Assembly: GCA_965222075.1 (NCBI GenBank)
Contig: OZ244937.1
Coordinates: forward strand, 1,920,001 to 1,984,000
Source: Candidatus Latescibacterota bacterium
Lineage (GTDB): Bacteria > Latescibacterota > UBA2968 > GCA-2709665
Direction of reading: 5' to 3'
DNA: 64,000 nt
This document shows, in pieces, positions 22,387 to 47,161 of this stretch (position 1 is the stretch's first letter; each line of letters opens with the position of its first letter). The notes beneath the pieces are model-generated. The model was not told the DNA's origin. It made no database searches and saw nothing but the letters and a program-made list of their open reading frames with translations. A program made the position numbers and the translations under genes.

Positions 22387-22467
22387 CGGATTTCTCTCCC
22401 GTGACGGACGGCCCCTCCAAACAACCTGAATGTCCGGATACGAATACCGTCCGTATAACACCAGAAC

Positions 22468-26298: not shown

Positions 26299-29114
26299 TC
26301 TGTCTCCAATCTTTGGCTCCGGCGTCCTGGCGACTCAGGATGGTAAAGCTCGAATTCAGAGGCACCAACTGACGCAAAGTCGAATTGCTGGTCTACCGCA
26401 CACAAATATCCGTCCGCGGTTACGACAAGCACCTCAGCAAGCCGGTCCCCGTCGACATCGGCGACTACAGGGGCGCTCAGAGACCGGTCCAGGTCCAGGG
26501 ACCACAACACCTTCCCTCCCTCGCTCTCTCCCTTAATCGCGTATATCCGGGAACCCGCACCAATAAACTCACTTACCCCATCCCCGTCGATGTCGGCTGT
26601 GACAATATCCCCTTTGATATCCACCTCCAGCGTCCATTTCACCCGTCCCGTCTTCGCATCGTAGCACCGCAGTTCGCCCGGGTGAGCAACCCCCAGCTCC
26701 ATCTCTCCGTCCCCATCGACATCGGCCAATCCTCCGTGGTACGTCGCCATCATCTCCGGACCGGGGTCGACCATCCAGAGGGGCTCCCGAGCCAGCGTCA
26801 TCGCACCCCATATCCCGTGGTTGGCAGAGGTCAACTGCTCTCTTTCCCCGTCTTTATTCAGGTCGGTAAGAACAATCGACCCGTAGGCCGTCCACATTCC
26901 ATCTTTGAAAATGGCAGGTGGTGACACCGGATCTTGAAGGAACGCCCCTGTGTTGCCGTTCAGCGTCACACAGAAATCCAGGCTCATCATCAGGATATCG
27001 TCGATGCCATCTCCATCCACGTCGTAAATACTCGGCAATCCGGTGGGACCCAGGCAGTGGTGGTGGTAGAACCCCGTATTCTTGCCGTCGTTGTGCCAGA
27101 GTACGCTCCCATCCCGCCCGTCCAGCGCCCAACTCTCGTTTGATGAGCCCGCTCCACCGAACGGGGTCCAGCGGGTGCAGACGTACACATCCAGCACCCC
27201 ATCCCCGTTAAAATTTCCCACCGTCCACCGGTGGACCGACCGGTACGCGGTCGCAGCAGCCATGCCGGGGACTTCCCATAACCAGCGCACGGTTCCGTCG
27301 CAATTTAACGCAGCCAGCGCGGCATTTCCTGAGCCTGTGCGTGTCCCAACCAGCACCTCCTTCCGACCGTCCCCGTCCAGGTCTGCGGCCAGGACGCCCT
27401 CGCCGCCGCTCCCCGACCAGGAGGTGCCCCAACCCCGGTAGCGCCACCTCCGCTCCAGCGGCTTTTGAGGGTCGCCCGTGGCCTTGAAGGCCTGGACCCA
27501 CCCGTCGCTGGTCTGAATAATGAGTTCGTTCTTCCCATCGCCGTCCAGGTCGGCAACCGTGGGCACCGCTGAGAATCCCCCCCCCGCCGCCCACCGACCT
27601 GAAACCGTGCCGTTTGAGTCGATCACCTGGATATACCCACGGTTATCACCCGCCAGGATCTCCGGCCGGCCGGCCCCATCCAGATCGTTCACTGCCAGGA
27701 CCTTCATCTCCATCTCGGGATCGACCTGCCACGAACGCTTCTCCCGCCAGAGGCCATCTGCGTCCGGACCAACGGCCAAAAAACGCTCCGGTGCGGCATC
27801 TCCGTCATCGTCGATCGCGACCAGCAAGTCCCCCCGGCCATCGCCGTCCCAGTCCGTTATGAAAGGCGCCTTGGGATCGTGCGAACGGGAGCCCATGCCA
27901 ATATCGTACTCCACCCGGGAATCCGCCTCCAGGCGGCACCGGGACCGTCGCCAGCGTTCCTTCCACTCCCCCTCCTCGCAGGAGATCACCACGAAATCCG
28001 AGTACTCCCGGCACGTCAAATGCCTCTGTTCCGAAAGGAGTAGCTCCATCCGCCCATCGCCGTCAACGTCGCACACCGACTCCAGGTAGCTGTTCCTCCG
28101 CTCGAACTTCAGTTCCCCCGTTGTCCCGTCGTAGAGGTGCAACCGCCAGTCCTCGTCGTAGACCGAAATGACAATCTCAATCCGCCCATCGCCGTCAACG
28201 TCGCACACCGACTTTGGAACGAAGTGCAGCAGGTGTCCTGTAAAGGGATACCACCACCCCCAGAACTTGCTCCAGAGCATACGCCCCTGTCCGTTTTCCG
28301 CTTTGATAACCACCAGCTGCAGGGCGATCAGGTCGTCCATCACCACGATTTCATTGAGCCCGTCCCCGTCTACATCCGCGATGCAACACTGCCCGTAGTT
28401 GCGCTGCTTCTGGCCTCCCGCCTCCCATTCAAAGCGAAGCTTCTCATCGCCGTTGCACACGTCCAGGGCCACCACGCCCCCCTGCACGGCCGCGCAGACC
28501 TCATACGCCCCATCGCCGTCTATGTCTCCCACCGTGGACGTAGCGTGAGCCCAGACCCCGCCTTTGTTAAACTCCTTTTCCCAGATAAGCCTTCCCTGCG
28601 CCGCACCGTCTTCAAACGTAAAAAAATGCGCGGAGTTGTACTCCTGGCACTCGGTCACTGCGGCAATCTGAAGCCCCCTGCGACCGGGATCGAGCTTCCC
28701 CACGTGTGTACGCCAGTTCGGGGCCCAGGCCGTGGGCGTGCGCCAGAGGATCGTACCGTCAACGCCGGAGACGACCACAGGCCCGTCCATCACAATCTCT
28801 TTCCGCCCATCCTCGTCCAGATCGACGATGGTTACGATCGTCCCCCCGGCCACGCTCACCCACTTCTCCTTCCCATCGACCGTCGTGGCAATCAACCGCC
28901 CTGCGCCCATACGCAGGACCTCCATTTCTCCATCTCCGTCCACATCCTCGACCACCACGTTCTCCATACGACCCCGGCCGAGATGATAACACCATTTCAC
29001 AACCGGCTGACGGATCTCGCCGGAGGCGGAAGAATGCCCCGAAAGCTGGACATCGTGGCGGGGCATCGGCCATTCACCCACCCTGTTCGGATCTGAAATA
29101 TTCGACGTTTCCAT
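26295..29114 (-). CDS. VCBS/FG-GAP repeat beta-propeller protein
   Basis: More than ten DxDGDG(x)2-3[ED] motifs; PQQ-propeller-like N-terminal 'WPMPRHD...SG'; no obvious signal peptide. Confidence 0.85.
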   Translation of the reverse strand: METSNISDPNRVGEWPMPRHDVQLSGHSSASGEIRQPVVKWCYHLGRGRMENVVVEDVDGDGEMEVLRMGAGRLIATTVDGKEKWVSVAGGTIVTIVDLDEDGRKEIVMDGPVVVSGVDGTILWRTPTAWAPNWRTHVGKLDPGRRGLQIAAVTECQEYNSAHFFTFEDGAAQGRLIWEKEFNKGGVWAHATSTVGDIDGDGAYEVCAAVQGGVVALDVCNGDEKLRFEWEAGGQKQRNYGQCCIADVDGDGLNEIVVMDDLIALQLVVIKAENGQGRMLWSKFWGWWYPFTGHLLHFVPKSVCDVDGDGRIEIVISVYDEDWRLHLYDGTTGELKFERRNSYLESVCDVDGDGRMELLLSEQRHLTCREYSDFVVISCEEGEWKERWRRSRCRLEADSRVEYDIGMGSRSHDPKAPFITDWDGDGRGDLLVAIDDDGDAAPERFLAVGPDADGLWREKRSWQVDPEMEMKVLAVNDLDGAGRPEILAGDNRGYIQVIDSNGTVSGRWAAGGGFSAVPTVADLDGDGKNELIIQTSDGWVQAFKATGDPQKPLERRWRYRGWGTSWSGSGGEGVLAADLDGDGRKEVLVGTRTGSGNAALAALNCDGTVRWLWEVPGMAAATAYRSVHRWTVGNFNGDGVLDVYVCTRWTPFGGAGSSNESWALDGRDGSVLWHNDGKNTGFYHHHCLGPTGLPSIYDVDGDGIDDILMMSLDFCVTLNGNTGAFLQDPVSPPAIFKDGMWTAYGSIVLTDLNKDGEREQLTSANHGIWGAMTLAREPLWMVDPGPEMMATYHGGLADVDGDGEMELGVAHPGELRCYDAKTGRVKWTLEVDIKGDIVTADIDGDGVSEFIGAGSRIYAIKGESEGGKVLWSLDLDRSLSAPVVADVDGDRLAEVLVVTADGYLCAVDQQFDFASVGASEFELYHPESPGRRSQRLETE

Positions 29115-29168
29115 GCGTCAACTCCTCTTTCTTTTCAGAAATGCCCGAAAGTGATCAACATTCTCCCC

Positions 29169-32100
29169 TCACCTTTCAGACTTAAAAACACCACTTCTGG
29201 TGTAGCCATCTTTCATCTCCTGGGGCAGGGTGCGCCAGATCAGGAAGTGCTTGCGGATCGTGTTGAGGAACCCCCGGTTGATCCGCTGCCACGACGCCAT
29301 ATCTCCGGACAGCCGCTGGATATGGACCTCCACCCCGTAGATGCCGAACTGCCCTGTCGGCGCCGCCACCATGCGCACCCGCTGGCTGATGCCCAGGTCG
29401 TAAGGGGCCAGCCAGGTCATCATCTCGATGGCGTAGACCGGCTCTCCCTCCCGCTTCTGGGCAGCAAACCGCACCCCTTCGGTCATAAACGCTCCGGTGG
29501 ATCCCTCCCCGTAGGAGTCGAATACCTCCGCCAGATAGACGTAAGCCCCGGCCACCTCTGCCCCGGCCACCGTGAAGGGGAAATCGAACAGCCAGTGGTC
29601 TCCATCCGGAGGGGGGAAAACCCACTGCCGCGTGACGTCCGGCACAGCCATTGCCGCGGCCTTCCGGGAGGGGTAGAGCGCCGAGAGCATCACTGTGGCC
29701 ATGACAACCAGTGTGGACGTGACCGCCGACAGCGACGAATAGTTGAGCGTCAACCCCCCCAGCATTCCGGCCAACGACAGAATCATCACCACCACCTGTC
29801 CCACAAGGTAGCCCATCACCGCCCCCACCGTGGCGAACACCGTCGCCTCTGCCAGGAACAGCGCCGACACGTGGGACGGGGCCAGGCCCAGCGATGAGTA
29901 GATGCCGATCTCCGAAAACCGCTCATAGACCGACCCCATCATCGTGTTGAGCACGATCAGCGCTGCAATTGCGATCGGGATGAGGAGGTTGCTCACACCC
30001 TTCAGCGACGTGGCCCCGATGGAGGAATAGACCGCCACCTTCTCCGCCACGCCCACGAACGCCGTCAGCGCCACCCGCGCCATAAACGCCTCGACTTGCG
30101 GGATGAAGTCCTGCTGTTTGAATCGGCCCACGGCCACCGACTGCAGCGACCCTCCCAGGTCCATCGCCGTCCGATACGGCAGCACGGCCACATTCTCCGG
30201 GTCGAGGTGAACAAATGCCTTGATCGGCTCTTTCGCCAGCACCTCTGGGTCCGCCGACTGGACCTGAGCCATTTCGTCCCCCTCCTCCACAGTATCCACC
30301 GGCGTGAGATGCTCATCGTCCAGGTCCTTCAGCGCCCGCATCCGCTCCGAGTCCAGAACCCCCACCACCCGCAGCATCCTGCCGAACAGCCGCACCTGGG
30401 CCCGGCCGACGTCCTCCGATCCAACCCCGAGCAGCTCCGCCATCGTGTCGGGCAGGAGGCAGACCTCCCGCTCCCCCTCCCGGAACCAGCGTCCGGCGCT
30501 CAAACAGCGGTCCACGCCCATGATCTCCGGCTCCCGCCAGGTCAGACCGACCAGCCCGTTGGCGTAGGTCCGATGCCCCTCCCTCTCCACTTCGAAGTAT
30601 GCCTGCCCCTTTCGCACGCCAGGCAGACACCAGGCCCGGGACACAACCGTAGCCTGCTCGCTGAATGCGCTTGAGAGCACATCCAGCGCCGAAGCCTGCA
30701 GCCCCCGCCACCCCCGGTCGCGCACCAGCATCCCCTCATACCCGGGCCGGTTGTCTCTGGGCATCTTGTAGAACTTGAGCGACGTGACCACCGACGTGAA
30801 CGAAAGGACCGTGAACGTCAGCAGGATGAGTGTGACCGCTGTAAGACCCGTGCGCATCGGCCGGTTTCGCAAATTGGAAATGCCCAGCGACATGGCCGCT
30901 GCGACCGCACTCACCCGCCCCACGTCCGCCCGGGGGATCTCTTTGCCCCCGCTCCGCAGGCGGCGCAGCACCTCGCCGAACTTCCCCACCAGCAGGCCCA
31001 ACACCCCGCACGCCAGGGACAGAATGACGAACGCCAGAAAGATGATGTAGGGCGTTGAAGCCAGCTTGAACGCCGGATGCACCCACCTCAGGATTAAAAA
31101 GACCGCAACGAACACCGCAGCAGCACCCAGCAGCCGCTTCCGGATGTCTGCAAAACCCAGCAGCAGCCGCTCCGCAAAGAACGAAAACGGCAGCAGCAGC
31201 GCAAAGTAGAACACGATCCCATGCACCGTGTCGTTGGCCGTGGACTTCACGTCCGGGTAGGCCCGCGCCTCCAGCCCCCACGCCCGCCGCGTCTCCGAGA
31301 TGAACCGGTCGTAGTCCAGCCGCTCTAAGGCGCTCCGGGCGTTCAACAGGGCTCTGCGCGCCTCCCCATGCAGCCCCTCCACCCGCCGGTTCTCCACCCC
31401 GTACCGGGCAAGTTGTTTCAACCGCGCGTCGTTGAGCACCCACATATCCCGCGCTCCCCGATACGAGGGGAACGTGATGACGCCCTCCTCAGCCGGATAA
31501 CCAACCCCCTTTGACCGGGTCACGACATCGTCTGTCACCTTTACAACCGGGTGCAGCAACAGCTCGTCCGGGGCGTTCGTCAGCAGGTACTTGATCCCGA
31601 CAATTCCAGTACTCACAAACAGCTTTGAGCGCTGTCCCGGCGGCACGAACGCCACGGCTGCCAGCGAGACACGAGCTGGAGACCCCACCAGCACCGCTCC
31701 CCCCGACCAGTCGGCCATCGCCCGCCCACCAACGTGCGTCACACCGTAAGACCGCAGGGGCCCGTCGTCCGGGCCAAGGATGGTCATGGCATCCAGGGCG
31801 AACAGGGTCCGGGAGTCGAAGATCTCGAACAGCGTCAGCGCCCGGCACTCAAACAGGACCGCCATGGTCTCCATCTCTTCTGACGTCAGCCGCACCTGGA
31901 GCGGGTACGTCTTGTCCCCATCCTCCCCCAGGTCCGGGGCCATGGCTACCTCCCCATCTTCGCCCAGCCTGTAAGCCACCAGGGTCACCGTACGCGTCCA
32001 GGCGTGCGCCGGCGACCGCACGCTCCGCAGCCGGAACCGCCCCGCCTTGTCCGTTAGCACCGCCGTCATCGTCCGCACCCCGGTCCGGCTGTCCGCCGGG

Positions 32101-33782
32101 CCATAGGCTACCACCGCCCCCGGCACCTTTCGCTTGGGCACAAAAGGATTCACCTGCCGGTCGAACAGGTAGACCGATCCGCTCAGGTCTGCCGCATAGT
32201 CCTTGAAATCGTACTTCGCCTCCGGGAAGAACTCGACATCCCGGCACGCCTTCAGCAGCATCCCCACAGTCGTCTGCGCCTGCGACGCCACCTTTTCAAA
32301 GTCCACCCGGTCCGCCACGTCTGCCGGCGTATCGATCCGCTCCCGGCTGTCGTGGGGCGTGGCGAACGTCATCGCCGTCATCCCGTGATAGAGCACCGCC
32401 TCCATATCAAACGCCAGGGGCGCGGACATGAAGTTCCACCACTCCCGGTTCGGCGGGGCAAGCGCATCCATCAACCGGGCCTGCGGCGGCTCTCCGGGAA
32501 ACAGCTCCGCCTCATAACTTGCAAACTGCTGTGAAAAAAACCTCAGCGTATTCTTCCGGTACCAGTCCGTCCGCCCCGTCCTCCACCCGGAATAGAACGT
32601 CCCCTGGCTGAAGAGCGCAGCCCGGCTGTCCCCCGACGAGAAGTCCAGCCCCATGAACAGGTCGAAGTCGATCCGATCCTCCGGCCGTATCTTCTCCCGA
32701 AAATGCGGGCTCTTTCGAGCGTGCCGGTAGACAAAATCGTTGATCCCCGCCAGCCCGTTGAAGTGCCCGGACGTGGCCAGCACCAGCACCGAAAACTTCG
32801 GGCGATGCACCGACAGCGCCTCTGCAATCTCCAAAAGCGAAGCAACACCCGCAGCCGACTCCGCACCCGGCGCGCGCGACGGAACGATGGACATCGCGTC
32901 GTAATACGCCTCGATAACAACAAGCCGGTCTTTCCACCGCCGGGGCTCTGCGCCCGGCCGGCCCGGCATCATCTCGTCCGACCCCCGAATGAACCCGTAG
33001 ACGTTCCACGTGGACGCCTCCTCCCACACCATCCGCGCCCTCACCGTCGCCTCCTCCCCGGCCTCTGCAAGCTCCCTCAACCGCACGCCTTCCTCCGCAT
33101 CCGCCCAGAAGCGCGGCACATTGGCAGGCACCGGCAATACCTTCAACTCCGCCTGCCCGCGGTTCACCACCCCATTATCGAAAAAAATCACCGCCACCGC
33201 ACCCAGCATCATCGGGTGGATGTAGTTCCGGTCGCAGTCGAAGTCCATCAGCACGATGGACCCCTCCACACGCTTCCCGTTGAAGTCCGCAAACGCCCCC
33301 TTCCCTCCGTAGATCAACCGTCCCGTTACACCCCCTGCCGGCAGCGTTGAGGTCCGGATGTGGTTCGGCCACAGACAGGCCAGGGCAACCTCCTCCCCCG
33401 TTGCCCCCACCCTCAGCCGCGCCCCCCGGTCTACCGGCACGGCCACTGTGAAGGAGTCCGTCCGGATATCCTGCAATCCGATCCGCTCGAACTCTCCCAG
33501 GATGTAGTCGTATGCCGCCCGGTTGCCCGGGTAGCCCACCGCCCGCGACGGCCAGGAAGACAGCGTTCGGATCTGCCGGGCAATCCGCTCTGGCGAGACC
33601 CGGGCCATTGCCGCCTGGATATCCGACGCCAGGACCGGAACCTGTGGCCGCTGGTAGCCCGCCTGCCAGTCCATGAACCGGCCAAAGAACTGCCTCGAAA
33701 TTGCACCGGGGTCCAGGATCCACACACAGATGTTGACCGCAATGCCGATGGCCAGCAAAAGATATAGCAGTAATTTTTTCAT
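29169..33782 (-). CDS. M28-peptidase-like/PA domain fused to FtsX/MacB-like permease
   Basis: N-terminal TM; 'SRAVGYPGNRAAYDYI', PA-like insert, 'YYDAMS...PGAESAAG...LLE'; C-terminal 'NLRNRPMRTGLT' and 'VYERFSEIGIYSSLG' FtsX motifs. Start at MKKLLLY. Confidence 0.8.
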   Translation of the reverse strand: MKKLLLYLLLAIGIAVNICVWILDPGAISRQFFGRFMDWQAGYQRPQVPVLASDIQAAMARVSPERIARQIRTLSSWPSRAVGYPGNRAAYDYILGEFERIGLQDIRTDSFTVAVPVDRGARLRVGATGEEVALACLWPNHIRTSTLPAGGVTGRLIYGGKGAFADFNGKRVEGSIVLMDFDCDRNYIHPMMLGAVAVIFFDNGVVNRGQAELKVLPVPANVPRFWADAEEGVRLRELAEAGEEATVRARMVWEEASTWNVYGFIRGSDEMMPGRPGAEPRRWKDRLVVIEAYYDAMSIVPSRAPGAESAAGVASLLEIAEALSVHRPKFSVLVLATSGHFNGLAGINDFVYRHARKSPHFREKIRPEDRIDFDLFMGLDFSSGDSRAALFSQGTFYSGWRTGRTDWYRKNTLRFFSQQFASYEAELFPGEPPQARLMDALAPPNREWWNFMSAPLAFDMEAVLYHGMTAMTFATPHDSRERIDTPADVADRVDFEKVASQAQTTVGMLLKACRDVEFFPEAKYDFKDYAADLSGSVYLFDRQVNPFVPKRKVPGAVVAYGPADSRTGVRTMTAVLTDKAGRFRLRSVRSPAHAWTRTVTLVAYRLGEDGEVAMAPDLGEDGDKTYPLQVRLTSEEMETMAVLFECRALTLFEIFDSRTLFALDAMTILGPDDGPLRSYGVTHVGGRAMADWSGGAVLVGSPARVSLAAVAFVPPGQRSKLFVSTGIVGIKYLLTNAPDELLLHPVVKVTDDVVTRSKGVGYPAEEGVITFPSYRGARDMWVLNDARLKQLARYGVENRRVEGLHGEARRALLNARSALERLDYDRFISETRRAWGLEARAYPDVKSTANDTVHGIVFYFALLLPFSFFAERLLLGFADIRKRLLGAAAVFVAVFLILRWVHPAFKLASTPYIIFLAFVILSLACGVLGLLVGKFGEVLRRLRSGGKEIPRADVGRVSAVAAAMSLGISNLRNRPMRTGLTAVTLILLTFTVLSFTSVVTSLKFYKMPRDNRPGYEGMLVRDRGWRGLQASALDVLSSAFSEQATVVSRAWCLPGVRKGQAYFEVEREGHRTYANGLVGLTWREPEIMGVDRCLSAGRWFREGEREVCLLPDTMAELLGVGSEDVGRAQVRLFGRMLRVVGVLDSERMRALKDLDDEHLTPVDTVEEGDEMAQVQSADPEVLAKEPIKAFVHLDPENVAVLPYRTAMDLGGSLQSVAVGRFKQQDFIPQVEAFMARVALTAFVGVAEKVAVYSSIGATSLKGVSNLLIPIAIAALIVLNTMMGSVYERFSEIGIYSSLGLAPSHVSALFLAEATVFATVGAVMGYLVGQVVVMILSLAGMLGGLTLNYSSLSAVTSTLVVMATVMLSALYPSRKAAAMAVPDVTRQWVFPPPDGDHWLFDFPFTVAGAEVAGAYVYLAEVFDSYGEGSTGAFMTEGVRFAAQKREGEPVYAIEMMTWLAPYDLGISQRVRMVAAPTGQFGIYGVEVHIQRLSGDMASWQRINRGFLNTIRKHFLIWRTLPQEMKDGYTRSGVFKSER

Positions 33783-33802
33783 GTAGAATGTCACACAGCC
33801 CC

Positions 33803-35791
33803 TCAGTAGATCACTTCTGACACCGCCTTGGAGATCAGGGCGACAGCAATGGAGGCCATACCCACCAGGCCCATTCCGCAGGAGTATCCTGCCAGCAGAA
33901 CCGGCGCATACGCCCTCCACCGTTCACCCCCGAATCGCCTTCCAAAGACGTAGCGACCGAGCATCGCCCCGACAAACTGCGGAATGACGAAGTGCGGCCA
34001 CGTGCCCAGCCCCCCCACAAATCCATAGAAGATGAGTGTGGGTGCGCCAAGGAGGGATAGCAGAAGGTACATCCCCCCTCCAAAAACGAACCCGACCAAA
34101 ATGGCGTCCCAGCGGATGATCTGCCCAAAAATGTCAATCCCCCCACCACCGGGCATCGTAGACCGAATCCACATCGTCTGAATCGTGGCATGGAACGGCC
34201 AGAACTTCTGGACGAAGGGGTAAGCGGCGGAGGGAATCGGACCCAACCGCCAGATGAACGACCAGAAGATAAAGCTGCAAACAAGCATCACAACGAACGT
34301 GACGGCTACCATCCTCACCAGGCTCCCGAACTTCGTCCGGGTTAACTCCATTTGCCTGAAGGTGTTGGCATTCCCCCCGTGATCGAACATCGGAATCGGC
34401 GCGAACCAGACCGCAGCCCCCTTATAACCCGACAGGTAGAAGGACGCCTCCCGCAAAAAAGGAATGGAGGACCCGTAGGGGCTCCCCGTCAGTCCAATCA
34501 TCCGCGCTCCGATGTAGGAGCTGAACGGCGTCCACAAAAACCCGAACGCCGCCGTAATCACCCACGGAAACGCCGGTACCAGGTAGCGGACCAGGACAAC
34601 AAAAGCCGCCGTGCTCACCCCCCAGATCAAGACCGGTATCCGGATCGGGATATCTCCACGGCCCGCAGGTAGATCCTGCCTTTTTTTGCCTCTCGTCTCT
34701 CTCCTCTCGCGTCTCTGTTTCAGGATCGTCCGGCCGGCAAGGACGAACCCTACAAAGGCGATAACGAGAGACGTCCCCACCCCGAAGCTCAGCCAGAAAT
34801 CGAACGAATTGGAGATCTGCGTCGGAATCGCCGTCATCCCCGGTGACCAGGTGTGGAGCACACCCCACCGATAAAGGATCGGGTTGGTGACCAGATTGAC
34901 CAGCATCGAGGCAGCAAAGCTGCCCGCCACGATCCAGAACGGCAGCACAAGCCCGATAAGCACGTGGGCCAGATCCGTCCCGATGCCGAAAATTGCCGCC
35001 GGTAGCGACGCCCGGAGGCTGTCCGTCACGTCCACGAACGGAATTGGGAAAATCTGCACCGTCTCCGTCAGGAACAGCCCGGAAATCGTCGGCACCGTCA
35101 CGTAGATAAGTCCCCAGATCGCCCCGATCATAGCGCCCACGCTGAACACGTTCCACCGCCATCCCTCCTGTTTGGACGAGGTCTCCCCCAGCGCCGTTGC
35201 TCCCCCCGCCTGCACCGGGGCCATCGGAAAGGACAATCGTTCCACGTCACTCGTCACACGGAACATGACGTATCCAAGCGACAGGGAATTGATCCGGTTA
35301 AGGACCATCACCACGATGAGGATGACGATTGGTTTCACCCAGTGCGGGTGCAGAAAGCTCCTCGTATCGTACGCGGAAGACCCGGTGGGCGGAGCCACCC
35401 AATCCGGGATATGTTCCGCAATCCCCTCCGCCTGCGGAGACTGGACGAGGTACTGGTCCCACACCAGTCCACCGAAAGGTCCTCCGAACAGATCCGCCCC
35501 GGTCCCCAGCTTCCCCCCCATCATCACCAGCCCCCCGGCAATCCAGTAGAGGATGATAATCTCCTGGGTCCGAAGCCTTATGAAAGAACGCTTGGCAATC
35601 TCGATGAACAGGATAACGGTGACCCACTCCGCCCCGCCCGCCATGCTCTGGCCCGTCACCAGGCCCAGGTAGATCGCACCCGGCAACATCAAAAACCCGA
35701 CGAACAGGGCTCCCCAGATTGTCTTGAGGTTGAAACCCTCCTCAAAGGGAGCAGCCTCCGTGTCCCGGATTTCAGATTCGAAAGTTGCCAA
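33803..35791 (-). CDS. OPT/YSL-like membrane protein (putative peptide transporter)
   Basis: Polytopic, with 'AEWVTVILF', 'ERLSFPMAP' and 'PIPSAAYP' motifs. TTG start at 35791 is inferred and uncertain. Confidence 0.7.
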   Translation of the reverse strand: MATFESEIRDTEAAPFEEGFNLKTIWGALFVGFLMLPGAIYLGLVTGQSMAGGAEWVTVILFIEIAKRSFIRLRTQEIIILYWIAGGLVMMGGKLGTGADLFGGPFGGLVWDQYLVQSPQAEGIAEHIPDWVAPPTGSSAYDTRSFLHPHWVKPIVILIVVMVLNRINSLSLGYVMFRVTSDVERLSFPMAPVQAGGATALGETSSKQEGWRWNVFSVGAMIGAIWGLIYVTVPTISGLFLTETVQIFPIPFVDVTDSLRASLPAAIFGIGTDLAHVLIGLVLPFWIVAGSFAASMLVNLVTNPILYRWGVLHTWSPGMTAIPTQISNSFDFWLSFGVGTSLVIAFVGFVLAGRTILKQRRERRETRGKKRQDLPAGRGDIPIRIPVLIWGVSTAAFVVLVRYLVPAFPWVITAAFGFLWTPFSSYIGARMIGLTGSPYGSSIPFLREASFYLSGYKGAAVWFAPIPMFDHGGNANTFRQMELTRTKFGSLVRMVAVTFVVMLVCSFIFWSFIWRLGPIPSAAYPFVQKFWPFHATIQTMWIRSTMPGGGGIDIFGQIIRWDAILVGFVFGGGMYLLLSLLGAPTLIFYGFVGGLGTWPHFVIPQFVGAMLGRYVFGRRFGGERWRAYAPVLLAGYSCGMGLVGMASIAVALISKAVSEVIY

Positions 35792-35804
35792 ATAAGCCCC
35801 CGCT

Positions 35805-37769
35805 TCAATATCCCAGCCACGGCTCGATCCAGGGATGGATCCGGTGCCCGGCGCCGTGGAAGAAGATAACGTCAATCAGGAACGAAAAGATGACCGCCGC
35901 GATATGCCCCACAATCAGGCCGAGAAAAAACGGCTTGGCCTTTCGATACAACGTGACTCCGCCAAATCGCACGATCAGATATTTGCAGGCCCACCCGATG
36001 AAGATGCACAGGACGAAGTTCCGAATGATATTCGTGCTGGCCACCGTGAAGCCGATGGGATGGAGCGGCCACCAGGGGAACCGGTAGCGCATGAATGTCA
36101 GCAGGGCCATAAGCACGGCCCCGACCCCGAAACAGGTGAGCAATTCCCAGTTCGGAGGCGCCGGGTCCTTCGCCTCGGCGACCACGCTCCGGAAGGTGTA
36201 GTGACTCCCGGCGCGGAACTCCCATCCAAAATTCGACGCTCCGTCCCGGTAGGGCAGGTAAAACGTCACGACGAGCGTTGTGACCATGCCGATGACCAGG
36301 CTCAACGCCAACCAGACCAGCATCCTGCGTCGTTGCCCTCGGAGGAAGTCCGCCCATCGGGCCACGTGTGAAAATGGCCCCAGGTAGTTCGGGATGAGAC
36401 GGGAGAAACCCAGAGCCACCAGACTCGACGGCGCCATTTTGTCGGATCCCAGGGCGAGTATCGCAATTCCCTGCGAACTCGCCGGCGCGGACACGAACAT
36501 CAGCCCGGACTCGACAACGATCCGTGTGACCCCGATCGCAAGGAGCAGGCCCACCCCCATGACCAGGAACGCCAGATACGGCTGTAGCCCGATATTGATC
36601 AGCCATCCTACGGAGAACAGCCACCCCAGGGCAACCCCCCAGAAGGCAACGCGAAACGGAATCAACTCATCCCCGTCGTCCGCAGACTTCCGGCCAAACC
36701 CGGCCAGGACCACCTCTTTCAGATGCTGCCGGGCGATCCACAGACCCCACAACACGAACACGAAAAACGCTCCGGCGCACTGCCATCCGCCGATGGGGTA
36801 GAGGGACGGGGGATAGAGCCCCGGCCTGAAAGTAATGTTGACGCCCAACCTGTTCAGGATGCCGACCTGCACCATGTAAAACAGGAAGAAAAACCAGATG
36901 CTGAACAGGATCTCCAGGTTGGCGAAGTAGGCAAACCCAATCGCAAAGGCGCTCTTGAGGGTGTAAACCCCGGGAAACCCACTTGCGAAAGAGAACATCG
37001 TCCCCCTCAGAGGCACCAGGGGCGTGGCTGGCGCAAAGTAGCCGATCACATTCCACCCAAGCGTCCCGAACGCCACGGCAAACCCCGACCAGAAAAGCCG
37101 GCTTTGCATAAACACAGGCAACAGCCGCCTCCCATCGGACCCTTCGATGATATCCAGCGTCACGCCCACCAGCGGGTAGGTCAGCCGCTCGTGCTCTGCC
37201 CACTGCTTCCTCAAAATCACCCCCAAACAGATCGACGCCACCGCCATCGCCAGGACCGGCAGCAGCCACCAGAACAGGGGCGAAACCCACGGCTGCCACG
37301 GCATCGAAGCGCCCTCCGGCAGCCCCTCGAAGAACCACTTCATCGCCCCTGAATGGTCCGTAGGAATGAGCCACGCCGGGAGATACGGGTGGATATATTT
37401 ATCCCACTGATTCTCCGGCGAGGCGAAGTAGTAGGGACTGGCCACGATGCCCAGCATGCTCGCCGCACCCCGATACGCACCGCCCGAAAGCCCCAGGCAC
37501 AGGATGATGAACAGTTCTCGCGGGGCCAGCCCCGCCTGGGGCCGGACGGCCTTGATGGCCGGGTTGATGAGGGTTACAACGATTAGAAAAATCGAAAGCA
37601 GCGACGTTGGGATGAACCCGTATTCCACCCACGACGACCGGGCAACGTAGCGGGAGTAGTCAATCCAGAATTGAGAAAGCATGGCAACGGCGATGCCGAT
37701 GACCACCGACCGGGGGGTGATCCGATTCGACCGCCCCACCTCGACCGCTCTCTCTGTCAGTCCCTCCAT
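35805..37769 (-). CDS. DUF6785/DUF6784-type polytopic membrane protein (OPT-like)
   Basis: 'PYYFASPENQW', 'QWAEHERLTYP', 'WWPLHPIGF' and 'KPFFLG' motifs; paralog of 5312-7315. Confidence 0.75.
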   Translation of the reverse strand: MEGLTERAVEVGRSNRITPRSVVIGIAVAMLSQFWIDYSRYVARSSWVEYGFIPTSLLSIFLIVVTLINPAIKAVRPQAGLAPRELFIILCLGLSGGAYRGAASMLGIVASPYYFASPENQWDKYIHPYLPAWLIPTDHSGAMKWFFEGLPEGASMPWQPWVSPLFWWLLPVLAMAVASICLGVILRKQWAEHERLTYPLVGVTLDIIEGSDGRRLLPVFMQSRLFWSGFAVAFGTLGWNVIGYFAPATPLVPLRGTMFSFASGFPGVYTLKSAFAIGFAYFANLEILFSIWFFFLFYMVQVGILNRLGVNITFRPGLYPPSLYPIGGWQCAGAFFVFVLWGLWIARQHLKEVVLAGFGRKSADDGDELIPFRVAFWGVALGWLFSVGWLINIGLQPYLAFLVMGVGLLLAIGVTRIVVESGLMFVSAPASSQGIAILALGSDKMAPSSLVALGFSRLIPNYLGPFSHVARWADFLRGQRRRMLVWLALSLVIGMVTTLVVTFYLPYRDGASNFGWEFRAGSHYTFRSVVAEAKDPAPPNWELLTCFGVGAVLMALLTFMRYRFPWWPLHPIGFTVASTNIIRNFVLCIFIGWACKYLIVRFGGVTLYRKAKPFFLGLIVGHIAAVIFSFLIDVIFFHGAGHRIHPWIEPWLGY

Positions 37770-37847
37770 TTGAATAAAACTCCGCTTATTTAGACACAGA
37801 AGCCGCTCCAACCATACAGCCACCGTCGGTAATGATAGAAGCTCCCG

Positions 37848-37934
37848 TCAGATGTCACCCATCTTTTGAGCCGAAGCGAAACCAATATCTCCCGCGCCTC
37901 CCGTGACCAACGCCACCTTTGTTGCAGTTGCCAT
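37848..37934 (-). pseudogene. Truncated short-chain dehydrogenase (SDR) N-terminal remnant, 28 aa
   Basis: GGAGG RBS then MATATKVALVTGGAGDIGFASAQKMGDI*. The TGxxxxIG Rossmann motif is followed almost at once by a stop. Confidence 0.75.
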
Positions 37935-37998
37935 TTTGGACCTCCATTCGGCATGAAATCAATCAATGATAGACTTTATGGGCCGCTAGCTCCATTCC

Positions 37999-38973
37999 TC
38001 ATCCTCGCACTTCCACAACCTGCCCTGTCCGGGCCGATTCCGCAGCAGCATCCAGAACGGCAAGTGAGGGGAGGACCTGCCGGCCGGCGGATTCTGGCTC
38101 CCGTCCGGTAAGCACGGCATCCACAAACTCGGCCATTTGTGCGTCGAAGGCGTTCTGATAGGCGCGATCGGAAGACTCTTCAACAATGGGTTGTCCATCC
38201 AGCCGGAGGGTGTGCCAGCAGTCAATGACAAGCGTTCCTTTCTGGCAGACGATGATCATATCCCTTCGGGTATGCTTCGAGCAGAAGGAGTCATAATTGA
38301 CAGCGTACGCCCCATTGTCCAGGGCAATGCTCGCCATGAAATCGTCCTCCCCGGTGTGGTCGACGCTGTTGTTGTGAGCCGTGGCGTAAACCCGGAGGGG
38401 ACGTGCATCGGCCATCCAGGGATAGAAATCAAACGTATGGGTGCCGGAACTCTCCATCAGAACATGCCGGCAGTCTTTGTACCAGGGCGGGAAGCTCGTG
38501 TTGTAGTGAAGCATGGTATAGAGAAAATGGAGGGGGTTTCCAACATCCCCAGACCGGAGGACCTCGCGGACCTTCCGGCAGACAGCCAGGAAGCGACAGC
38601 ACTGCGCCGACATCAGCGTCAGGTTCAGACGCTCCGCCTCCGACACGAGAGTCACGCCATCTGCATGGCCCTCGGCCATAGGCTTCTCAACCAGGACGTG
38701 TTTGCCCGCCTGGAGGGCCGCCATGACGTGGTCGAAGTGAAGGTTGCTGGGGGTGCAAAGGACAACGGCGTCGATGCCGGGATCGGCCAGAGCATCTTCA
38801 TAGGCACCGTAGGCGCGTGGTGCGCCGTAGTCGCTGGCCGCGGCCATGCGCCGGCCCTCGTCCCGGCTGACAGCGGCGACAACCCGGGCCTGGTCACACT
38901 TCTGAATCGCTCTAAAGTGGAGCTTTGAGACATTGCCGCAGCCCACCACCCCCAGACACAATCTATCGGACAT
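37999..38973 (-). CDS. Gfo/Idh/MocA family oxidoreductase
   Basis: 'GVVGCG', 'GKHVLVEKP', 'GTHTFD' and 'AAAESARTGQVV' motifs. Confidence 0.9.
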   Translation of the reverse strand: MSDRLCLGVVGCGNVSKLHFRAIQKCDQARVVAAVSRDEGRRMAAASDYGAPRAYGAYEDALADPGIDAVVLCTPSNLHFDHVMAALQAGKHVLVEKPMAEGHADGVTLVSEAERLNLTLMSAQCCRFLAVCRKVREVLRSGDVGNPLHFLYTMLHYNTSFPPWYKDCRHVLMESSGTHTFDFYPWMADARPLRVYATAHNNSVDHTGEDDFMASIALDNGAYAVNYDSFCSKHTRRDMIIVCQKGTLVIDCWHTLRLDGQPIVEESSDRAYQNAFDAQMAEFVDAVLTGREPESAGRQVLPSLAVLDAAAESARTGQVVEVRG

Positions 38974-39033
38974 AGGAGAACCTCCACTTTATATTGACAA
39001 GCACACGGTAGCTTCTTAGCTTAAGGACAATAA

Positions 39034-39186
39034 GGAAATTTACCAATAGTCACTGTTATTTTCAAGAATGATGACGGGGCACCACTTACGGTTGACCTGA
39101 ACGGATCGTCGGTGGAAGGCGAGATGGAGGTCACGGTTCCGTCTTCGGGACTCGTGGTACGGCGGACGGATGGCCGTGGTCGTTGA
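39034..39186 (+). pseudogene. Start-less coding remnant of a beta-rich domain
   Basis: Stop-bounded frame GNLPIVTVIFKNDDGAPLTVDLNGSSVEGEMEVTVPSSGLVVRRTDGRGR* reads as protein-like; a TTGACA-17-TAGCTT motif lies upstream at 38994-39022. Confidence 0.4.
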
Positions 39187-39187
39187 T

Positions 39188-39718
39188 TTACGGGGCATCT
39201 CCCTTTGTGATGGGGTAGTTCGCCCAGAACCAGGCGTTCCAGCCCTCGTAAAACGCCTGGGTTCGGGTATACCCCAAATCTTCGATCATCAGTCTGACAA
39301 AGAAAAAACTGTTCCGGCAGCTTCTGCCGCCGCAGTAGGCAATGATCCAGGTGTCTTTGGGCAGGTCGCCCAGCACATGCCGTATTCTGAGTTCGAATGA
39401 GAGAACCGGAATGCTCAGAGCGCCCGGAATGTGCCCGGCGGCATAGGCGTCGGGAGAACGGGTATCGATAAAGACGGCGTCTTTGCGATCGAATGCCCGT
39501 TTTGCCTCGTCTAAGGTAACGCGCATGCCCTCCACGTGCAGGTTCCATTCGATCCGTCCCGACAGAGGGATAGCATCGGGCGTTCGAAGCGGAATGCCGG
39601 CATCCGAAAAGGCATTGTAGGCAAACCCTGCTCCGGAGCCGATCAGGAGGACGGCGACGGCCTTTAAAATCAGGCGGCCCACGCCTGTATCCACTCTTTC
39701 CGGTCTGTCTGTCTCCAT
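39188..39718 (-). CDS. Membrane-anchored rhodanese-like domain protein
   Basis: One N-terminal TM; 'FIDTRS...YAAGHIPGALSI', active-site loop 'YCGGRSC', 'EGWNAW'. Confidence 0.85.
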   Translation of the reverse strand: METDRPERVDTGVGRLILKAVAVLLIGSGAGFAYNAFSDAGIPLRTPDAIPLSGRIEWNLHVEGMRVTLDEAKRAFDRKDAVFIDTRSPDAYAAGHIPGALSIPVLSFELRIRHVLGDLPKDTWIIAYCGGRSCRNSFFFVRLMIEDLGYTRTQAFYEGWNAWFWANYPITKGDAP

Positions 39719-39863
39719 CGCTCTTCACCACCTCCCTGGCAAAAAAAGCTTTTTATGGTACCGAGAACGTATAATATGGCTTAGCGTCGGTTTTCGCTTG
39801 GTTCGCTCCCGCCGGATTGCCAAATCCACGCCGAGCATCCCGACCCCAGCCCCCAATCCCTCT

Positions 39864-39892
39864 TTGACATTTCGCCTTTCATGTGCTATTTT
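39864..39892 (+). promoter_or_regulatory. Sigma70-type promoter TTGACA-17-TATTTT with extended -10 TG
   Basis: Consensus -35 and spacing, about 40 nt upstream of the 39934 ATG. Confidence 0.55.
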
Positions 39893-39933
39893 GCACCTTC
39901 CCCTGTACCTCTTTCCAACCAGGAGCCATCACA

Positions 39934-42318
39934 ATGAACCTTGCCGTCACAGAAGGCGTCTATTCAAAAGACAGCTACGAACCCAACCTCTGCACCCTGC
40001 GGGACGGCAAAACGTGCTGGACCGCCTGGGCGGCCTACGGCGCGGCGGGGTCCAGGGCATTTGTGCGGAAATTCGTCGGGAAAACCGCCGGTCCCATCGA
40101 GCCGCTGTCCCCCAACAATACCATGCAGACGCGCCCCATCTGCATCCCGAACGGGGATGAGGTAGTATTTGTCTGGCTTGAAAAGGCCGGCCAGCAGTAC
40201 GCGTTTTGGACCCGGAAACAGGATGGGAATGCGTTCACCCGGTGCCGGGAGTGCCACGTCCTGCCCGCTTCGGCAAAGGTCTGGGAGCCGCAGGCCCTCC
40301 TCGATGAAAGCGGCGCCCTCTGGATCTGCTGGGCCCACTCCGTCAGAGGAGACAGCCGCATCGAAATCCTCAGAACCCTCCCGGATGGCAAAACCGCAAC
40401 GTACTCGTTGGGAAATCGGGTACGCTACAATTACCGGCCCAGGATGGTCGAATGGGGGTCGGAAGGCGTCTACATCATCTGGGACAGCTACGTTGACGGC
40501 ACCTACGACATCTACGGCTGTGCGGTCGATCCGGCAGGCCCTCAGGAAGCGGTCAAAATCAGCCGCGACGCCGGGTGGGAAAACAGATCGACCCTCTGCC
40601 GGGACGCCGGCGGTGAACTCTGGGCGGTGTGGGTGCGCGGTGTGGACGTCATGTACCACAGCAGCACCCTCCAGCAGAAGTACTCCCTGCGGGGCGCCCG
40701 TTTGGACGGTCGGTCCTGGGCGCCTCTGTCGGGTGCGGACGGAGGCGCCGACATTGCGCCGCTCCACTACGGGCTGTTGACCGACTTCCCGAAACCGCCC
40801 AACCTGGGGCACATGGGCAGGCGGCTCTTCCCGATCCTCAAGGGCGCCGAAGGCGACGGCGTCTGGCTCTTCTACGAGGTCAAGGCAGACAGTGAGCAGG
40901 GCACGCTCACCTCCAGGGGCCGCCTCTTCGGCCATACCTGCGCCGACGGCGCCTGGTCGGAACCCTGCAACGTGGCCGACGGGAACATTTTCTACGAACT
41001 TCCCCACAATAGCACGGTCGGAACCGGGGTCTACCTCCTGTCGCAGGACATGATCACCGATGAGCGTTACCTGGAAAAGGTCGACCTCTCCACCGACCTC
41101 CCCGTTGTACCCCCTGAAAACCGCCGCATCGACCTGACCGAATGGAAGGAAGTCCGGCTGCCATTTGAGAACCTGCGAAAGACAGACCGGCCCCGCAACG
41201 ACCTGCCCGGCGGGGAAAGCGGGAAATACCACCTCTTCTGGGTGGACCTGCACTGCCACTCGGCGGCCTCCATCGAAATGGAGGGCGAGCCGGATGAGCT
41301 GGGCCACTACGCCCGGCACAAGGCGCAAATCGACGGGCTGACCGTCTCCGACAACGACTGCTTCTGGAACCTGCATACCCGCCAGAACGTGCGCCACCTG
41401 AAGGACTACGAGTGGGACTACGTCAAAGGCAACGCGATGGTCCTCAACGAACCCGGACAGTTTGCCATGTTTCCCGGCTACGAAATGACCGTGACCGACC
41501 GGGTGGACTCCGGGCGGGACCACCGGTCGGTGATGTCGGACGACGACGAAATGGAAATGGACCTGCTTCACTTCAAGTACAAAGAGGCCCACTCGAAGGG
41601 CGAGCGGCATACCCACAAGGACACCAGGGAGTGTATCGCCTGGTTCAAAGAAAAAGGTTACCTTCCCCTCCCCCACCCCCACCACGGGAAATGGAACCTC
41701 TACGACACGGACGTCGAGTGGGGCATCGACTTGTGTGCTGCCTGGATGATCAACATCGACCTTTACGACATCTATTTCAAATACCTGAACGCGGGCCATA
41801 AATTCGCCTTCACCGGCAGCGGGGACAGCCACCACCGCAACCCCGGCTTAAGCGGTGCGCTCACCGGCATCTGGGCCGAGCGCCTGGACCGTACCGCCTT
41901 CCTGAACGCGATCAAAGCGAGACGCTGCTACGCAACGGCCGGCCAGAAAATTCTGATCGAATTCACGATCAACGATCAGATGATGGGCAGCTCGCTGGTC
42001 GTTGAGGACGACCCGGTGCTGAAGTGGCGGGTCGTGGGCGAAGCGGGCCAGGAATACATCCTGCGCGTCCACCGGGACGGGCGTCTGATGCACGACGACC
42101 GGTTCATCGGCCAGACCCGGGGAGAGCGAAAAGAATTCCGGCTGCGCCAGTATCGCCCCGGAAAGCACTACTACTACCTCGAAGTCATGGCCCCCGACCC
42201 CATCCCCCAATACCCGGCCAACGTCGCGCACGCCATGGGCGCCAAAGGCTGGAGCACACCCATCTGGGTCGAGACACCTGCCTGCCGCGACGACCGCGGC
42301 GCAGGCAGGTCGGGATGA
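39934..42318 (+). CDS. PHP-like metallohydrolase (DUF3604/CehA-McbA-like) with N-terminal beta-propeller
   Basis: 'WVDLHCHS', 'PGYE', 'PHPHH', 'GSGDSH' and 'RRCYATAG' motifs; AGGAG RBS. Confidence 0.75.
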   Translation: MNLAVTEGVYSKDSYEPNLCTLRDGKTCWTAWAAYGAAGSRAFVRKFVGKTAGPIEPLSPNNTMQTRPICIPNGDEVVFVWLEKAGQQYAFWTRKQDGNAFTRCRECHVLPASAKVWEPQALLDESGALWICWAHSVRGDSRIEILRTLPDGKTATYSLGNRVRYNYRPRMVEWGSEGVYIIWDSYVDGTYDIYGCAVDPAGPQEAVKISRDAGWENRSTLCRDAGGELWAVWVRGVDVMYHSSTLQQKYSLRGARLDGRSWAPLSGADGGADIAPLHYGLLTDFPKPPNLGHMGRRLFPILKGAEGDGVWLFYEVKADSEQGTLTSRGRLFGHTCADGAWSEPCNVADGNIFYELPHNSTVGTGVYLLSQDMITDERYLEKVDLSTDLPVVPPENRRIDLTEWKEVRLPFENLRKTDRPRNDLPGGESGKYHLFWVDLHCHSAASIEMEGEPDELGHYARHKAQIDGLTVSDNDCFWNLHTRQNVRHLKDYEWDYVKGNAMVLNEPGQFAMFPGYEMTVTDRVDSGRDHRSVMSDDDEMEMDLLHFKYKEAHSKGERHTHKDTRECIAWFKEKGYLPLPHPHHGKWNLYDTDVEWGIDLCAAWMINIDLYDIYFKYLNAGHKFAFTGSGDSHHRNPGLSGALTGIWAERLDRTAFLNAIKARRCYATAGQKILIEFTINDQMMGSSLVVEDDPVLKWRVVGEAGQEYILRVHRDGRLMHDDRFIGQTRGERKEFRLRQYRPGKHYYYLEVMAPDPIPQYPANVAHAMGAKGWSTPIWVETPACRDDRGAGRSG

Positions 42319-45735: not shown

Positions 45736-45745
45736 AGCACCCCTT

Positions 45746-47161
45746 TCACCCTTCGTCTTGCGACACGCCTCCATCCCGCGCCGCTTCGAGCTCCACGCGA
45801 ATGATCTCATTCGCATCGTCCGATTCTGTCTCTATCCCCCGGTGGTCCATTCCCGCCAGTTCAACCTGCTGGGGAATTCTGAGCAGATTCAACCTTTTCA
45901 GAAGAAGGCCGAGGATGTAACAGGGCAGGAAACCGAGCACAACGAACATAATGATCGCACCGATGGTCTGCCCCCAGGGCGTAATGACCGCATAGGCGGA
46001 ATTGGGTGAACTTGGATACCCCCACAGCACAAACCCTGCAACAATAACCCCGATCACGCCAGCATATCCGTGAACGGCAACGGCGCCGACCGCATCGTCA
46101 ATTTTGAACTTCCGCTCCACCCAGTAGTGCAGCTTGTACATACACAACACCCCGAAGCCGCCGATAAGATGGGCCTGCAGCGGATGGTACAGGTCGTTTC
46201 CCGCCGAAGCGGTAATAATGCCCGCCAGTCCCCCCGAAAACGTCCAGTAGGGATCGCCCTTGGACACAAAATATCCCGCGATCAACCCTCCGGCCAGCGA
46301 CATCAAAAAGTTAAACGTAATCGCGCTCAACGTCGTGGGCGTCAGATAGATCGTCGTGGCCGAGAAAAACGTCCTGGCATCGGAAGCATCGACATCCCAG
46401 ATCGGCACATTGCAGGCGGCGTAAAATCCCCAGAACCCGGTATAGATCAGAAACAGCCCGATGACGACCAGCCAGGTGTTGTGCGGAGGGAAATTCCGGG
46501 GCGTCCCATCCGGGCGAAACCTCCCGATTCTCGGGCCCAGATGGTAGAGAATTGCCAGTGCCGATCCCCCGCTGATGGCGTGGATCACCCCCGACGCATA
46601 GGCGTCGTGGTAGCCCAGCACCTGGACCATCCATCCATCCGCCGACCATCCCCACGCAGCGTCGATCACCCAGGTGATTGACCCCACCAGAACGGCGAAT
46701 AGCCAGAAGGCGCTCGACCGGATGCGTTCGATCACCGCCCCCGAAAGAATCGAACCCGCCGTCCAGGAAAAGATCAGAAACGCCGCCCAGAACACGCCGT
46801 TGATACGCGCCCATGCCGCCGTGTCCGCCGCCGACAGCCCCCCACCGTGGGGCTTCCCCCCCATGTGCGTTCCCATCAACTCGTTCCAGGGCTCCGCCCA
46901 GGCGGCGGATTTTAAGCCTCCTGTGATGCCCGGCCCGTTCTGAAAGGCGAAATAGATCCACCATCCGAAAAAGTAAAACGTCACCGTCACCAGCGGAATA
47001 AGCATCGCATTCTTCATCAGGGTGTGCATCATATTCTTGCGGCGAGAAACGCCCACTTCGTACAGGCAGAACCCCACGTGAATGAGGAACATCAGAACAA
47101 TGCACACCCAATAGTAGAACTCTGTAAAAATAACCGACAATGCACTCAGTTCATTCTCCAT
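45746..47161 (-). CDS. amt: Ammonium transporter family protein (probably methylamine-associated)
   Basis: '[10 protein letters not shown]', 'LGPRIGRF' and '[12 protein letters not shown]' with the twin-His retained; about 11 TMs. Confidence 0.88.

Follow-up and report, generated by a model that had tools for sequence, protein, structure and literature searches.

The locus described here raises the question of how a giant protein carrying the permease unit of an ATP-binding cassette (ABC) transporter might work when it is encoded next to two carriers, with no ATPase nearby. It lies in the 64,000-nucleotide (nt) stretch analysed in this work, referred to as the window, which corresponds to positions 1920001-1984000 in the single-contig 5.36-Mb genome of a Candidatus Latescibacterota bacterium. 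Members of this phylum occur widely but are uncultured, and what is said of their nutrient uptake is inferred from annotation alone. The three genes, referred to as A, B and C, are co-directional:

35805-37769, minus strand: gene A, 654 amino acids (aa), likely ATG start at 37769, open reading frame (ORF) 35805-37823
33803-35791, minus strand: gene B, 662 aa, TTG start at 35791, ORF 33803-35875
29169-33782, minus strand: gene C, 1537 aa, ATG start at 33782, ORF 29169-33920

A first-pass annotation of the window had described them as three tightly spaced membrane genes, as indeed they are: the TTG of B, which is also the start used in the database copy P0004, is located 13 nt past the stop of A, and the ATG of C 20 nt past the stop of B. 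The same annotation depicted an import machine without an ATPase, in which C captures an oligomer and a heteromeric A/B pair translocates it. The analysis reported below confirms the module and modifies the machine. A, B and C represent a real and recurrent module, whose tight core is formed by C and B, with A as a frequent but facultative neighbour; the statement that there is no ATPase is true of the window only, and the apparent lack results from a dispersal of the genes and does not characterise the system.

Concerning the two carriers, A is a full-length match to PF20581 (DUF6785; E 2.3e-99, 333.6 bits against a cut-off of 25, profile positions 1-498) and to PF20580 (DUF6784; E 1.3e-29, 102.8 bits against a cut-off of 26.4). 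For B, no Pfam family was retrieved at E <= 0.01 (at E <= 10 only Ndc1_Nup, with 0.31), nor did it match any NCBIfam family. The OPT model PF03169 is matched by neither A nor B itself (in the case of B, not even at E <= 10). A direct BLASTP comparison of the two proteins yields a single significant segment (23/97 identities, E 1e-4), which contains both motif pairs, LPAWLIP/IPDWVAP and ERLTYPL/ERLSFPM, on which the idea of a distant paralogy had been based; the profiles of the A and B families can be aligned end to end (hhalign 98.2%, E 5e-14, 573 columns), A and B being distant paralogs along their whole length. The B family is large: of 8000 proteins scored, 2433 reach E <= 0.001, and a count at 50% identity gives 955 clusters. 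PF03169 is matched by 23 of the 60 aligned members, with a best E of 1.3e-17; a precomputed PF03169 assignment is found on 8 among 120 listed close homologs of B. The structure of B was taken from the AlphaFold model of P0004 (pLDDT 90.6), a database representative differing from the B of the window in at least two residues. Foldseek matched this model to HvYS1, both as 7wst_A (E 1.1e-10, template-modelling scores 0.61/0.67) and as 7wsr_A (E 2.2e-9, 0.63/0.69); beyond HvYS1 all the template-modelling scores were 0.13 or lower, the next match having an E of 0.018 and a score of 0.11. Sequence searches of the PDB with the A and B profiles gave nothing useful and did not retrieve HvYS1, and an Atlas search with A gave leads only, at scores of 0.78-0.80, to clusters named 'peptide transporter' and to a cluster of which 31% of the members carry OPT.

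On the basis of the alignment between the two family profiles, of the OPT matches within the B family and of a fold match limited to HvYS1, A and B are divergent OPT/YSL-fold carriers, as had been supposed, A being assigned through the profile comparison with the B family. According to passages of PMC9691689, HvYS1 forms a homodimer through its scaffold, and an elevator-like model is considered for it. The two proteins differ from the OPT/YSL carriers in that A is filed as DUF6785/DUF6784 and is present in about 46 copies in the genome of the window, and in that B is located beside a type VII ABC permease fusion in all the copies checked; we know of no type VII permease partner of an OPT carrier, and none turned up in the full-text searches described below. 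Two length classes of B exist, of about 680 aa and of about 805-960 aa (the form of about 805 aa being seen in A-C-B loci), and the long B of one genome (G003, L124:5839-8718) carries C-terminal Reg_prop (two-component regulator propeller) repeats.

The third protein, C, contains the following parts:

32241-33623, minus strand: PA/M28-like ectodomain (PDB profile match to the aminopeptidase 2ek8_A, E 6.9e-12; weak Nicalin matches, E 0.001)
30990-31229, minus strand: three extra transmembrane (TM) helices (hydropathy peaks, residues 852-931)
29649-30842, minus strand: type VII ABC permease unit, i.e., TM1, MacB-like periplasmic core domain and TM2-4 (Pfam and fold alignment)
29172-29633, minus strand: C-terminal cytoplasmic alpha/beta domain of about 150 aa (invariant columns across the family; model pLDDT 74-90)

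The fusion architecture attributed to C is thus found again by Pfam, by the PDB profile search, by hydropathy and by fold alignment. The hydropathy order is an N-terminal TM, about 830 aa devoid of TMs, the three extra TMs, the first FtsX helix (TM1), a periplasmic domain, TM2-4 and a soluble C-terminus of about 150 aa. Pfam assigns FtsX (PF02687; E 9.8e-13, 48.7 bits, cut-off 25.5), which is matched by all 8 paralogs of the genome, and MacB_PCD slightly below its cut-off (PF12704; E 2.7e-5, 25.0 bits, cut-off 27), and the C-family profile matches YtrF, MacB and LolC in the PDB. A model was computed for the last 705 residues only (pTM 0.42). In a VIA-align comparison the permease unit reaches Z 17.4 to 5xu1_S, 16.8 to MacB 5nik_J and 14.0 to LolC 7arh_C, and eleven type VII permeases, or periplasmic domains of such permeases, are matched at Z 12-17, the matches including MacB, HrtB, YtrF, FtsX, LolC, YbbP and BceB. 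The periplasmic core domain, modelled with a pLDDT of about 90, aligns with MacB 3ftj_A (Z 13.3, root-mean-square deviation 3.7 over 181 residues) and with the LolE, YknZ and LolC domains (Z 11-12). The loop between TM2 and TM3 contains a motif, ER..EIG (E1333, R1334, E1337, I1338 and G1339), that is invariant in the family and that we take to be the ATPase contact site, as in MacB. C is therefore a type VII (MacB/LolC/FtsX-type) ABC permease with an intact cytoplasmic coupling loop. For the C-terminal domain no Pfam or NCBIfam match was found, the Atlas scores were 0.77 or lower, and the fold matches (helix-grip/START, Aha1-C, KA1 and BamC-N) are borderline, their Z of 8-9 falling in the range that the fold-search tool calls common, so that a fold family is not claimed.

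The ectodomain matches Peptidase_M28 (PF04389; E 5.7e-6, 26.6 bits, cut-off 21.3) over profile positions 12-105 of 193 only, and PA under the cut-off (E 0.0049); a further stretch of about 330 periplasmic residues past it has no family assignment. The M28 peptidases bind zinc through two His, two Asp and one Glu, and possess an additional catalytic Glu. In C, whose site positions were read off the alignment with 2ek8, the canonical site is lost, HHDS being replaced by YYDA, DD by E and AEE by AHF. The same degeneration was observed in 17/17 homologs, including members from distant families, with HxD read as [YF]YDA, GADD as GAE/GAD and EE as H[FH], the last His being unconserved. Since the site is degenerate in all of them, the ectodomain is not regarded as an ordinary, active M28 peptidase, and to judge from these residues it is more likely to bind than to cleave. 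The condition is reminiscent of nicastrin, the inactive M28-like ectodomain of a membrane complex, and of Nicalin, with which C shares a PA/M28-like fold with replaced catalytic/zinc positions and the attachment to a membrane complex; the relation holds only at the M28 superfamily level, C being bacterial, fused to an ABC-type permease and closest to the true aminopeptidase 2ek8.

The conservation of the module was surveyed on the best 80 of 553 C relatives, whose loci hold 82 C genes. C is flanked by A and/or B in 71/82 cases, and the trio does co-occur in other genomes, as the first-pass annotation had presumed. In terms of arrangement, C is located between A and B in 24 cases, beside B only in 27, beside A only in 14 and between two A genes in 6; the remaining 11 have neither, and 7 of these have A or B no more than four genes away. 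The arrangement A-B-C was not found in the 80 loci surveyed. In 18 genomes with long contigs, each of the 35 B matches adjoins a C match of the same strand, 34 of them within 600 nt and one at about 2 kb, and the order is C-B everywhere except in the window, which has B-C. Over 61 genomes of the phylum, A occurs in 47, C in 47, B in 46, a small FtsX (see below) in 44 and a T-like ATPase in 43; all five are missing from the 13 genomes of a single family (f9) and occur in each of the 12 remaining families.

The genome of the window harbors 8 copies of C, 7 of which flank A and/or B, and 3 copies of B, each adjoining C. By contrast with B, A gives 46 near-full-length matches, and 36 of the 43 gene-called copies are away from C; 14 of the 46 matches are reported with in-frame stops, which might reflect either an overhang of the match or pseudogenes. 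From 20 to 56 A candidates per genome were counted in the order to which the window belongs and none in 14 well-known control genomes, and no other membrane-protein family noticed in these genomes is as expanded as DUF6785/DUF6784. When 54 A proteins were placed on a tree, the 17 from genes next to C came out scattered among the 37 solo ones, with at least 7 changes, and the possibility that the C-adjacent copies represent one subfamily was rejected. Flank counts, co-distribution in the phylum and the scattered A tree together define C-B as the core of the module and A as its facultative member, which has diversified as a carrier in its own right. Two short DUF6784-like fragments close to the C locus at 1.59 Mb (G000:C1:1582844-1583065 and 1590528-1590758) resemble remnants of broken A copies, one of them being 78% identical to the C-terminus of the A gene of the window.

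As for the missing ATPase, the window itself agrees with what had been reported, since no ABC_tran or solute-binding family was detected by Pfam in the 39 window proteins scanned, and 0/50 ABC-ATPase matches of the genome fall within the window coordinates. In three other families, however (f8, with three genomes, f11 and f6), the genes are arranged on one strand in an eight-gene, ancestral-looking cluster with the order [A]-TPR-C-B-y-PqqD-like-small FtsX-ABC ATPase. The small FtsX is a protein of 228 aa without a periplasmic domain; it is single-copy in 44/61 genomes and adjoins this ABC ATPase in each listed case. The protein y is a conserved protein of 294 aa (L122:11235-12119, with homologs in L121, L123, L124 and L125), located between B and the PqqD-like gene in the three families and lacking any Pfam or NCBIfam family. 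In the genome of the window the same genes are dispersed, the small FtsX/ATPase pair being located at 3.20 Mb and y (740647-741606) and the PqqD-like gene at 0.74 Mb, far from every C locus. The possibility that the pair represents the cell-division FtsEX was rejected, the canonical FtsE (E 1.1e-73) and, matched over its full length, the canonical FtsX (E 4.6e-56) being encoded elsewhere. A second candidate is an orphan ATPase of the LolD/MacB/FtsE/DevA type, 63% identical to that of the pair, which lies upstream of a paralogous A-C-B locus (L019, 2.63-2.64 Mb); its orthologs precede A-C-B in 7/80 related loci. In a predicted complex of this ATPase with residues 998-1583 of C (ORF numbering), scores of 0.50, 0.50 and 0.47 were obtained against 0.00 for the best control, with at least 59% of the contacts common to the runs and a partner pLDDT of at least 69; this lends weak support to a docking of the ATPase on the permease half of C, and the score may reflect likeness alone, given that MacB and LolCDE complexes have been solved.

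Because an ATPase closes the cluster in three families and candidates exist in the genome of the window, where C moreover keeps the ER..EIG loop, the absence of an ATPase cannot be regarded as a property of the system. The most likely driver of C is a LolD/MacB-type ATPase whose gene lies at another site of the genome, and C possibly works with the 228-aa FtsX as a partner. With the type VII ABC systems (MacB, LolCDE, FtsEX, HrtBA, YtrEF and BceAB) C shares the four-TM FtsX unit, the core domain between TM1 and TM2 and the conserved TM2-TM3 loop, as well as the presence, sometimes in a cluster, of LolD/MacB-type ATPases. It is set apart from them by three extra TMs, by a cytoplasmic domain at the C-terminus and, at the N-terminus, by an ectodomain of about 830 aa. 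The gene for its ATPase is mostly found away from it and, in the clustered form, is accompanied by that for a second, ectodomain-less FtsX. C is moreover tied to secondary carriers, where a membrane-fusion protein or an exit duct in the outer membrane would be the usual partner.

The reading that we tentatively prefer, and to which we would give nearly an even chance, is that C is an ATP-driven type VII mechanotransducer working with the OPT-fold importers B and A. According to this reading, an ATPase encoded in trans would drive C, which may pair with the small FtsX as LolC does with LolE; ATP hydrolysis would act through the membrane on the periplasmic part of C (the degenerate PA/M28-like region and the MacB-like core domain), which would bind or handle an oligomeric substrate, such as a peptide, a glycopeptide or a glycan fragment. 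The ectodomain would have a capture role; its degenerate peptidase site suits binding over cleavage. B, as the dedicated partner, and A, as a frequent second one, would then import the substrate or its products into the cytoplasm, where, at the window locus, large signal-less beta-propeller/FG-GAP enzymes might process it. A stronger version, a hybrid transporter of a new kind in which C, together with the small FtsX and a LolD-type ATPase common to several units, would use its pseudo-peptidase ectodomain to seize or unfold oligomers in the periplasm and load them directly into a docked B (sometimes A), one ATPase serving up to eight units per genome, appears rather unlikely.

The direction of transport suggested here, i.e., towards the cytoplasm, is derived from the proteins encoded downstream of the module and from the neighbours of the solo A genes. 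Around the module the following genes are found:

26295-29114, minus strand: downstream gene, 939 aa, FG-GAP repeats and an RGL11_C-like (rhamnogalacturonan lyase family 11) segment (Pfam), beginning 54 nt past the stop of C
18634-26298, minus strand: pair of paralogs, about 1275 aa each, with a beta-propeller at the C-terminus (lambda-carrageenase-like/FG-GAP, Pfam)
37999-38973, minus strand: upstream gene, GFO/IDH/MocA oxidoreductase (PF01408, E 9.3e-27), 230 nt before A

Further same-strand genes located downstream encode an alpha/beta hydrolase and a 7-TM protein. None of the three large downstream proteins shows an N-terminal hydrophobic stretch in a crude hydropathy scan, which is compatible with the import towards downstream enzymes proposed at first. 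Proteins of about 1230-1270 aa similar to the tandem pair come after C in related loci (L016, L022-L026). In sequence searches against the PDB, the 1276-aa downstream protein had no relative and the 939-aa one retrieved only designed or natural propellers; the first 890 residues or so of the tandem paralogs correspond to no Pfam family and no PDB sequence.

Among the neighbours of solo A genes, TonB-dependent-receptor-like genes occur in 3 of the 20 loci examined, together with genes for sulfatase, alginate lyase, heparinase II/III-like and GH113 proteins and for sugar oxidoreductases, isomerase-like TIM barrels, peptidase S15, gamma-glutamyltranspeptidase and amidase. The second A copy of the window (5312-7315, minus strand) is likewise located amid sugar-type enzymes. 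As far as gene context can tell, these neighbours suggest varied organic substrates. Directly after three solo A genes there are CarboxypepD_reg proteins of about 1050 aa (L101:6891-10070, L103:5858-9055 and L106:5463-8597, one of them with a Plug), which look like TonB-dependent receptors and suggest paired outer-/inner-membrane uptake units. The solo A loci recall, by analogy, those of the polysaccharide-utilisation type, with a TonB-dependent receptor and an inner-membrane importer, in that A adjoins TonB-dependent-receptor-like genes, lyases, a sulfatase and a GH113; they differ from them in that the carrier is an OPT-fold DUF6785 protein and in that no SusD-like family was found among the 73 solo-A neighbours scanned.

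Several observations weigh against a joint C-carrier machine. The contact between C and A/B is inferred from gene linkage, and the C model is of low quality in its TM part, the three extra TMs having a pLDDT below 50. At 7 of the 8 C loci in the genome of the window neither the ATPase nor the small FtsX is linked to C, and at the eighth (L019) an opposite-strand tRNA-Phe gene lies between the ATPase and A. The genome also contains 35 FtsX-domain matches, many of them orphan permeases of about 800 aa, which might equally use these ATPases; the assignment of either ATPase to the C copy of the window is conjectural. The joint absence of the module from f9 is shared by one clade and might thus represent a single event, and the pairing between A and C is loose, since C-adjacent A copies are scattered over the A tree. 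The absence of signal peptides in the downstream proteins is known from the hydropathy scan only, and the PqqD-like protein and a darobactin-exporter-like ATPase score would fit peptide export too. Lastly, the type VII ABC systems known to us extrude, extract or activate, and none of them feeds an importer. At L019, the interval between the orphan ATPase and A-C-B (L019:14550-15580, at 2.640 Mb) also contains a small antisense ORF beside the tRNA-Phe gene.

Among the other explanations, the one that survives best assumes that the proteins belong to the same pathway as separate machines, C and its ATPase activating, anchoring or extracting something in the periplasm or membrane, or sensing flux, in the manner of FtsEX, BceAB or LolCDE, and A and B being independent proton-coupled importers of the products, so that their linkage would reflect co-regulation and not a complex. 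Known type VII systems such as FtsEX-EnvC and LolCDE act on periplasmic partners, and their structures are among the fold matches of C. The large number of A copies without a neighbouring C in the genome (about 36/43) and the scattering of C-adjacency on the A tree speak in its favor. Furthermore, passages of PMC9691689 describe HvYS1 as working alone, as a homodimer. On the other hand, all 35 B copies are found directly beside C, mostly at less than 600 nt, which is tighter than co-regulation usually needs, the window gaps measure only 13 and 20 nt, and no conserved periplasmic hydrolase partner was observed beside C in the surveyed loci. On balance, separate machines seem fairly unlikely.

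An exporter appears improbable. It would consist of C, the small FtsX and the ATPase as a MacB-like system for peptide export or envelope maintenance, with the PqqD-like protein recognising the peptide and A/B recycling or re-importing the product. In its favor, in f6, f8 and f11 the small FtsX/ATPase pair has the PqqD-like gene as a neighbour, the ATPase scores on the darobactin-export model DarD nearly as high as on LolD, the cluster is kept in small genomes (1.3-2.6 Mb), near housekeeping genes such as mgsA, and the M28, PA, OPT and PqqD families are all peptide-related. Nevertheless, the clusters showed neither a maturase nor a precursor-like gene, y and the PqqD-like gene of the window's genome are remote from all its C loci, and the C paralogs of this genome sit with polysaccharide-type enzymes.

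The ATPase-less importer of the first-pass annotation, with its obligate A/B heteromer translocating what the fusion captures, is the least supported of the readings and very improbable: it would agree with the lack of an ATPase or binding protein within the window, with the common fold of the paralogs A and B, with the dimerisation of OPT/YSL carriers via scaffold domains (passages of PMC9691689) and with the adjacent A, C and B trio in 24/82 cases, but the coupling loop of C is invariant, in three families the cluster has at its end a second FtsX and an ABC ATPase, both of which exist in the window's genome too, and a heteromeric A/B pair is not required, since C occurs with B and no A in 27/82 cases and with A and no B in 20/82, and about 36 A copies of the genome have no C beside them.

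Returning to the preferred reading of C as a mechanotransducer for B and A, the families themselves (OPT, type VII ABC and M28) are known. As far as full-text searches show, what is new is the recognition of an OPT fold in DUF6785/DUF6784 and in the B family, the gene-for-gene link between B and the giant FtsX/pseudo-M28 fusion, the eight-gene ancestral-looking cluster and the roughly 46-fold expansion of A. The full-text literature search retrieved no paper on DUF6785, DUF6784, PF20581 or PF20580; a search on Latescibacteria and OPT gave nothing on topic among the matches listed, and one on FtsX, M28 and OPT gave unrelated papers only. The passages searched of a paper on sponge Latescibacterota (PMC12993501) contain no FtsX, MacB or TonB. 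If C and B do form one machine, this would represent the first link of mechanotransmission-type ABC systems with secondary carriers and a new route of oligomer uptake. In either case, two Pfam DUFs and an unnamed family receive a testable role, of interest to transport and environmental microbiology.

Finally, a few observations concern the sequence of the module and the rest of the window. A promoter/terminator scan of positions 22000-40000 gave counts equal to those of shuffled sequences (7 vs 5.2 and 16 vs 15.2), and the operon limits are not definable from it. The 8.7-kb stretch recurs with 0-5 differences in contigs from runs of three studies. Two exact contigs, 34142-34335 (in B) and 37326-37584 (in A), are present in a sponge metatranscriptome library (X12); they might derive from DNA carry-over and carry no expression level, so that transcription is not claimed. 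Upstream of the module, a divergently oriented gene (39883-42318, plus strand) encodes a protein of 811 aa with a weak DUF3604 match. The positions 44050-63998 are occupied by a block of one-carbon and nitrogen metabolism, which contains formate-tetrahydrofolate ligase, an ammonium transporter, glutamate-synthase-like pieces, glutamine synthetases and GCV_T/sarcosine-oxidase-like proteins, one of which is a fusion of 1052 aa.

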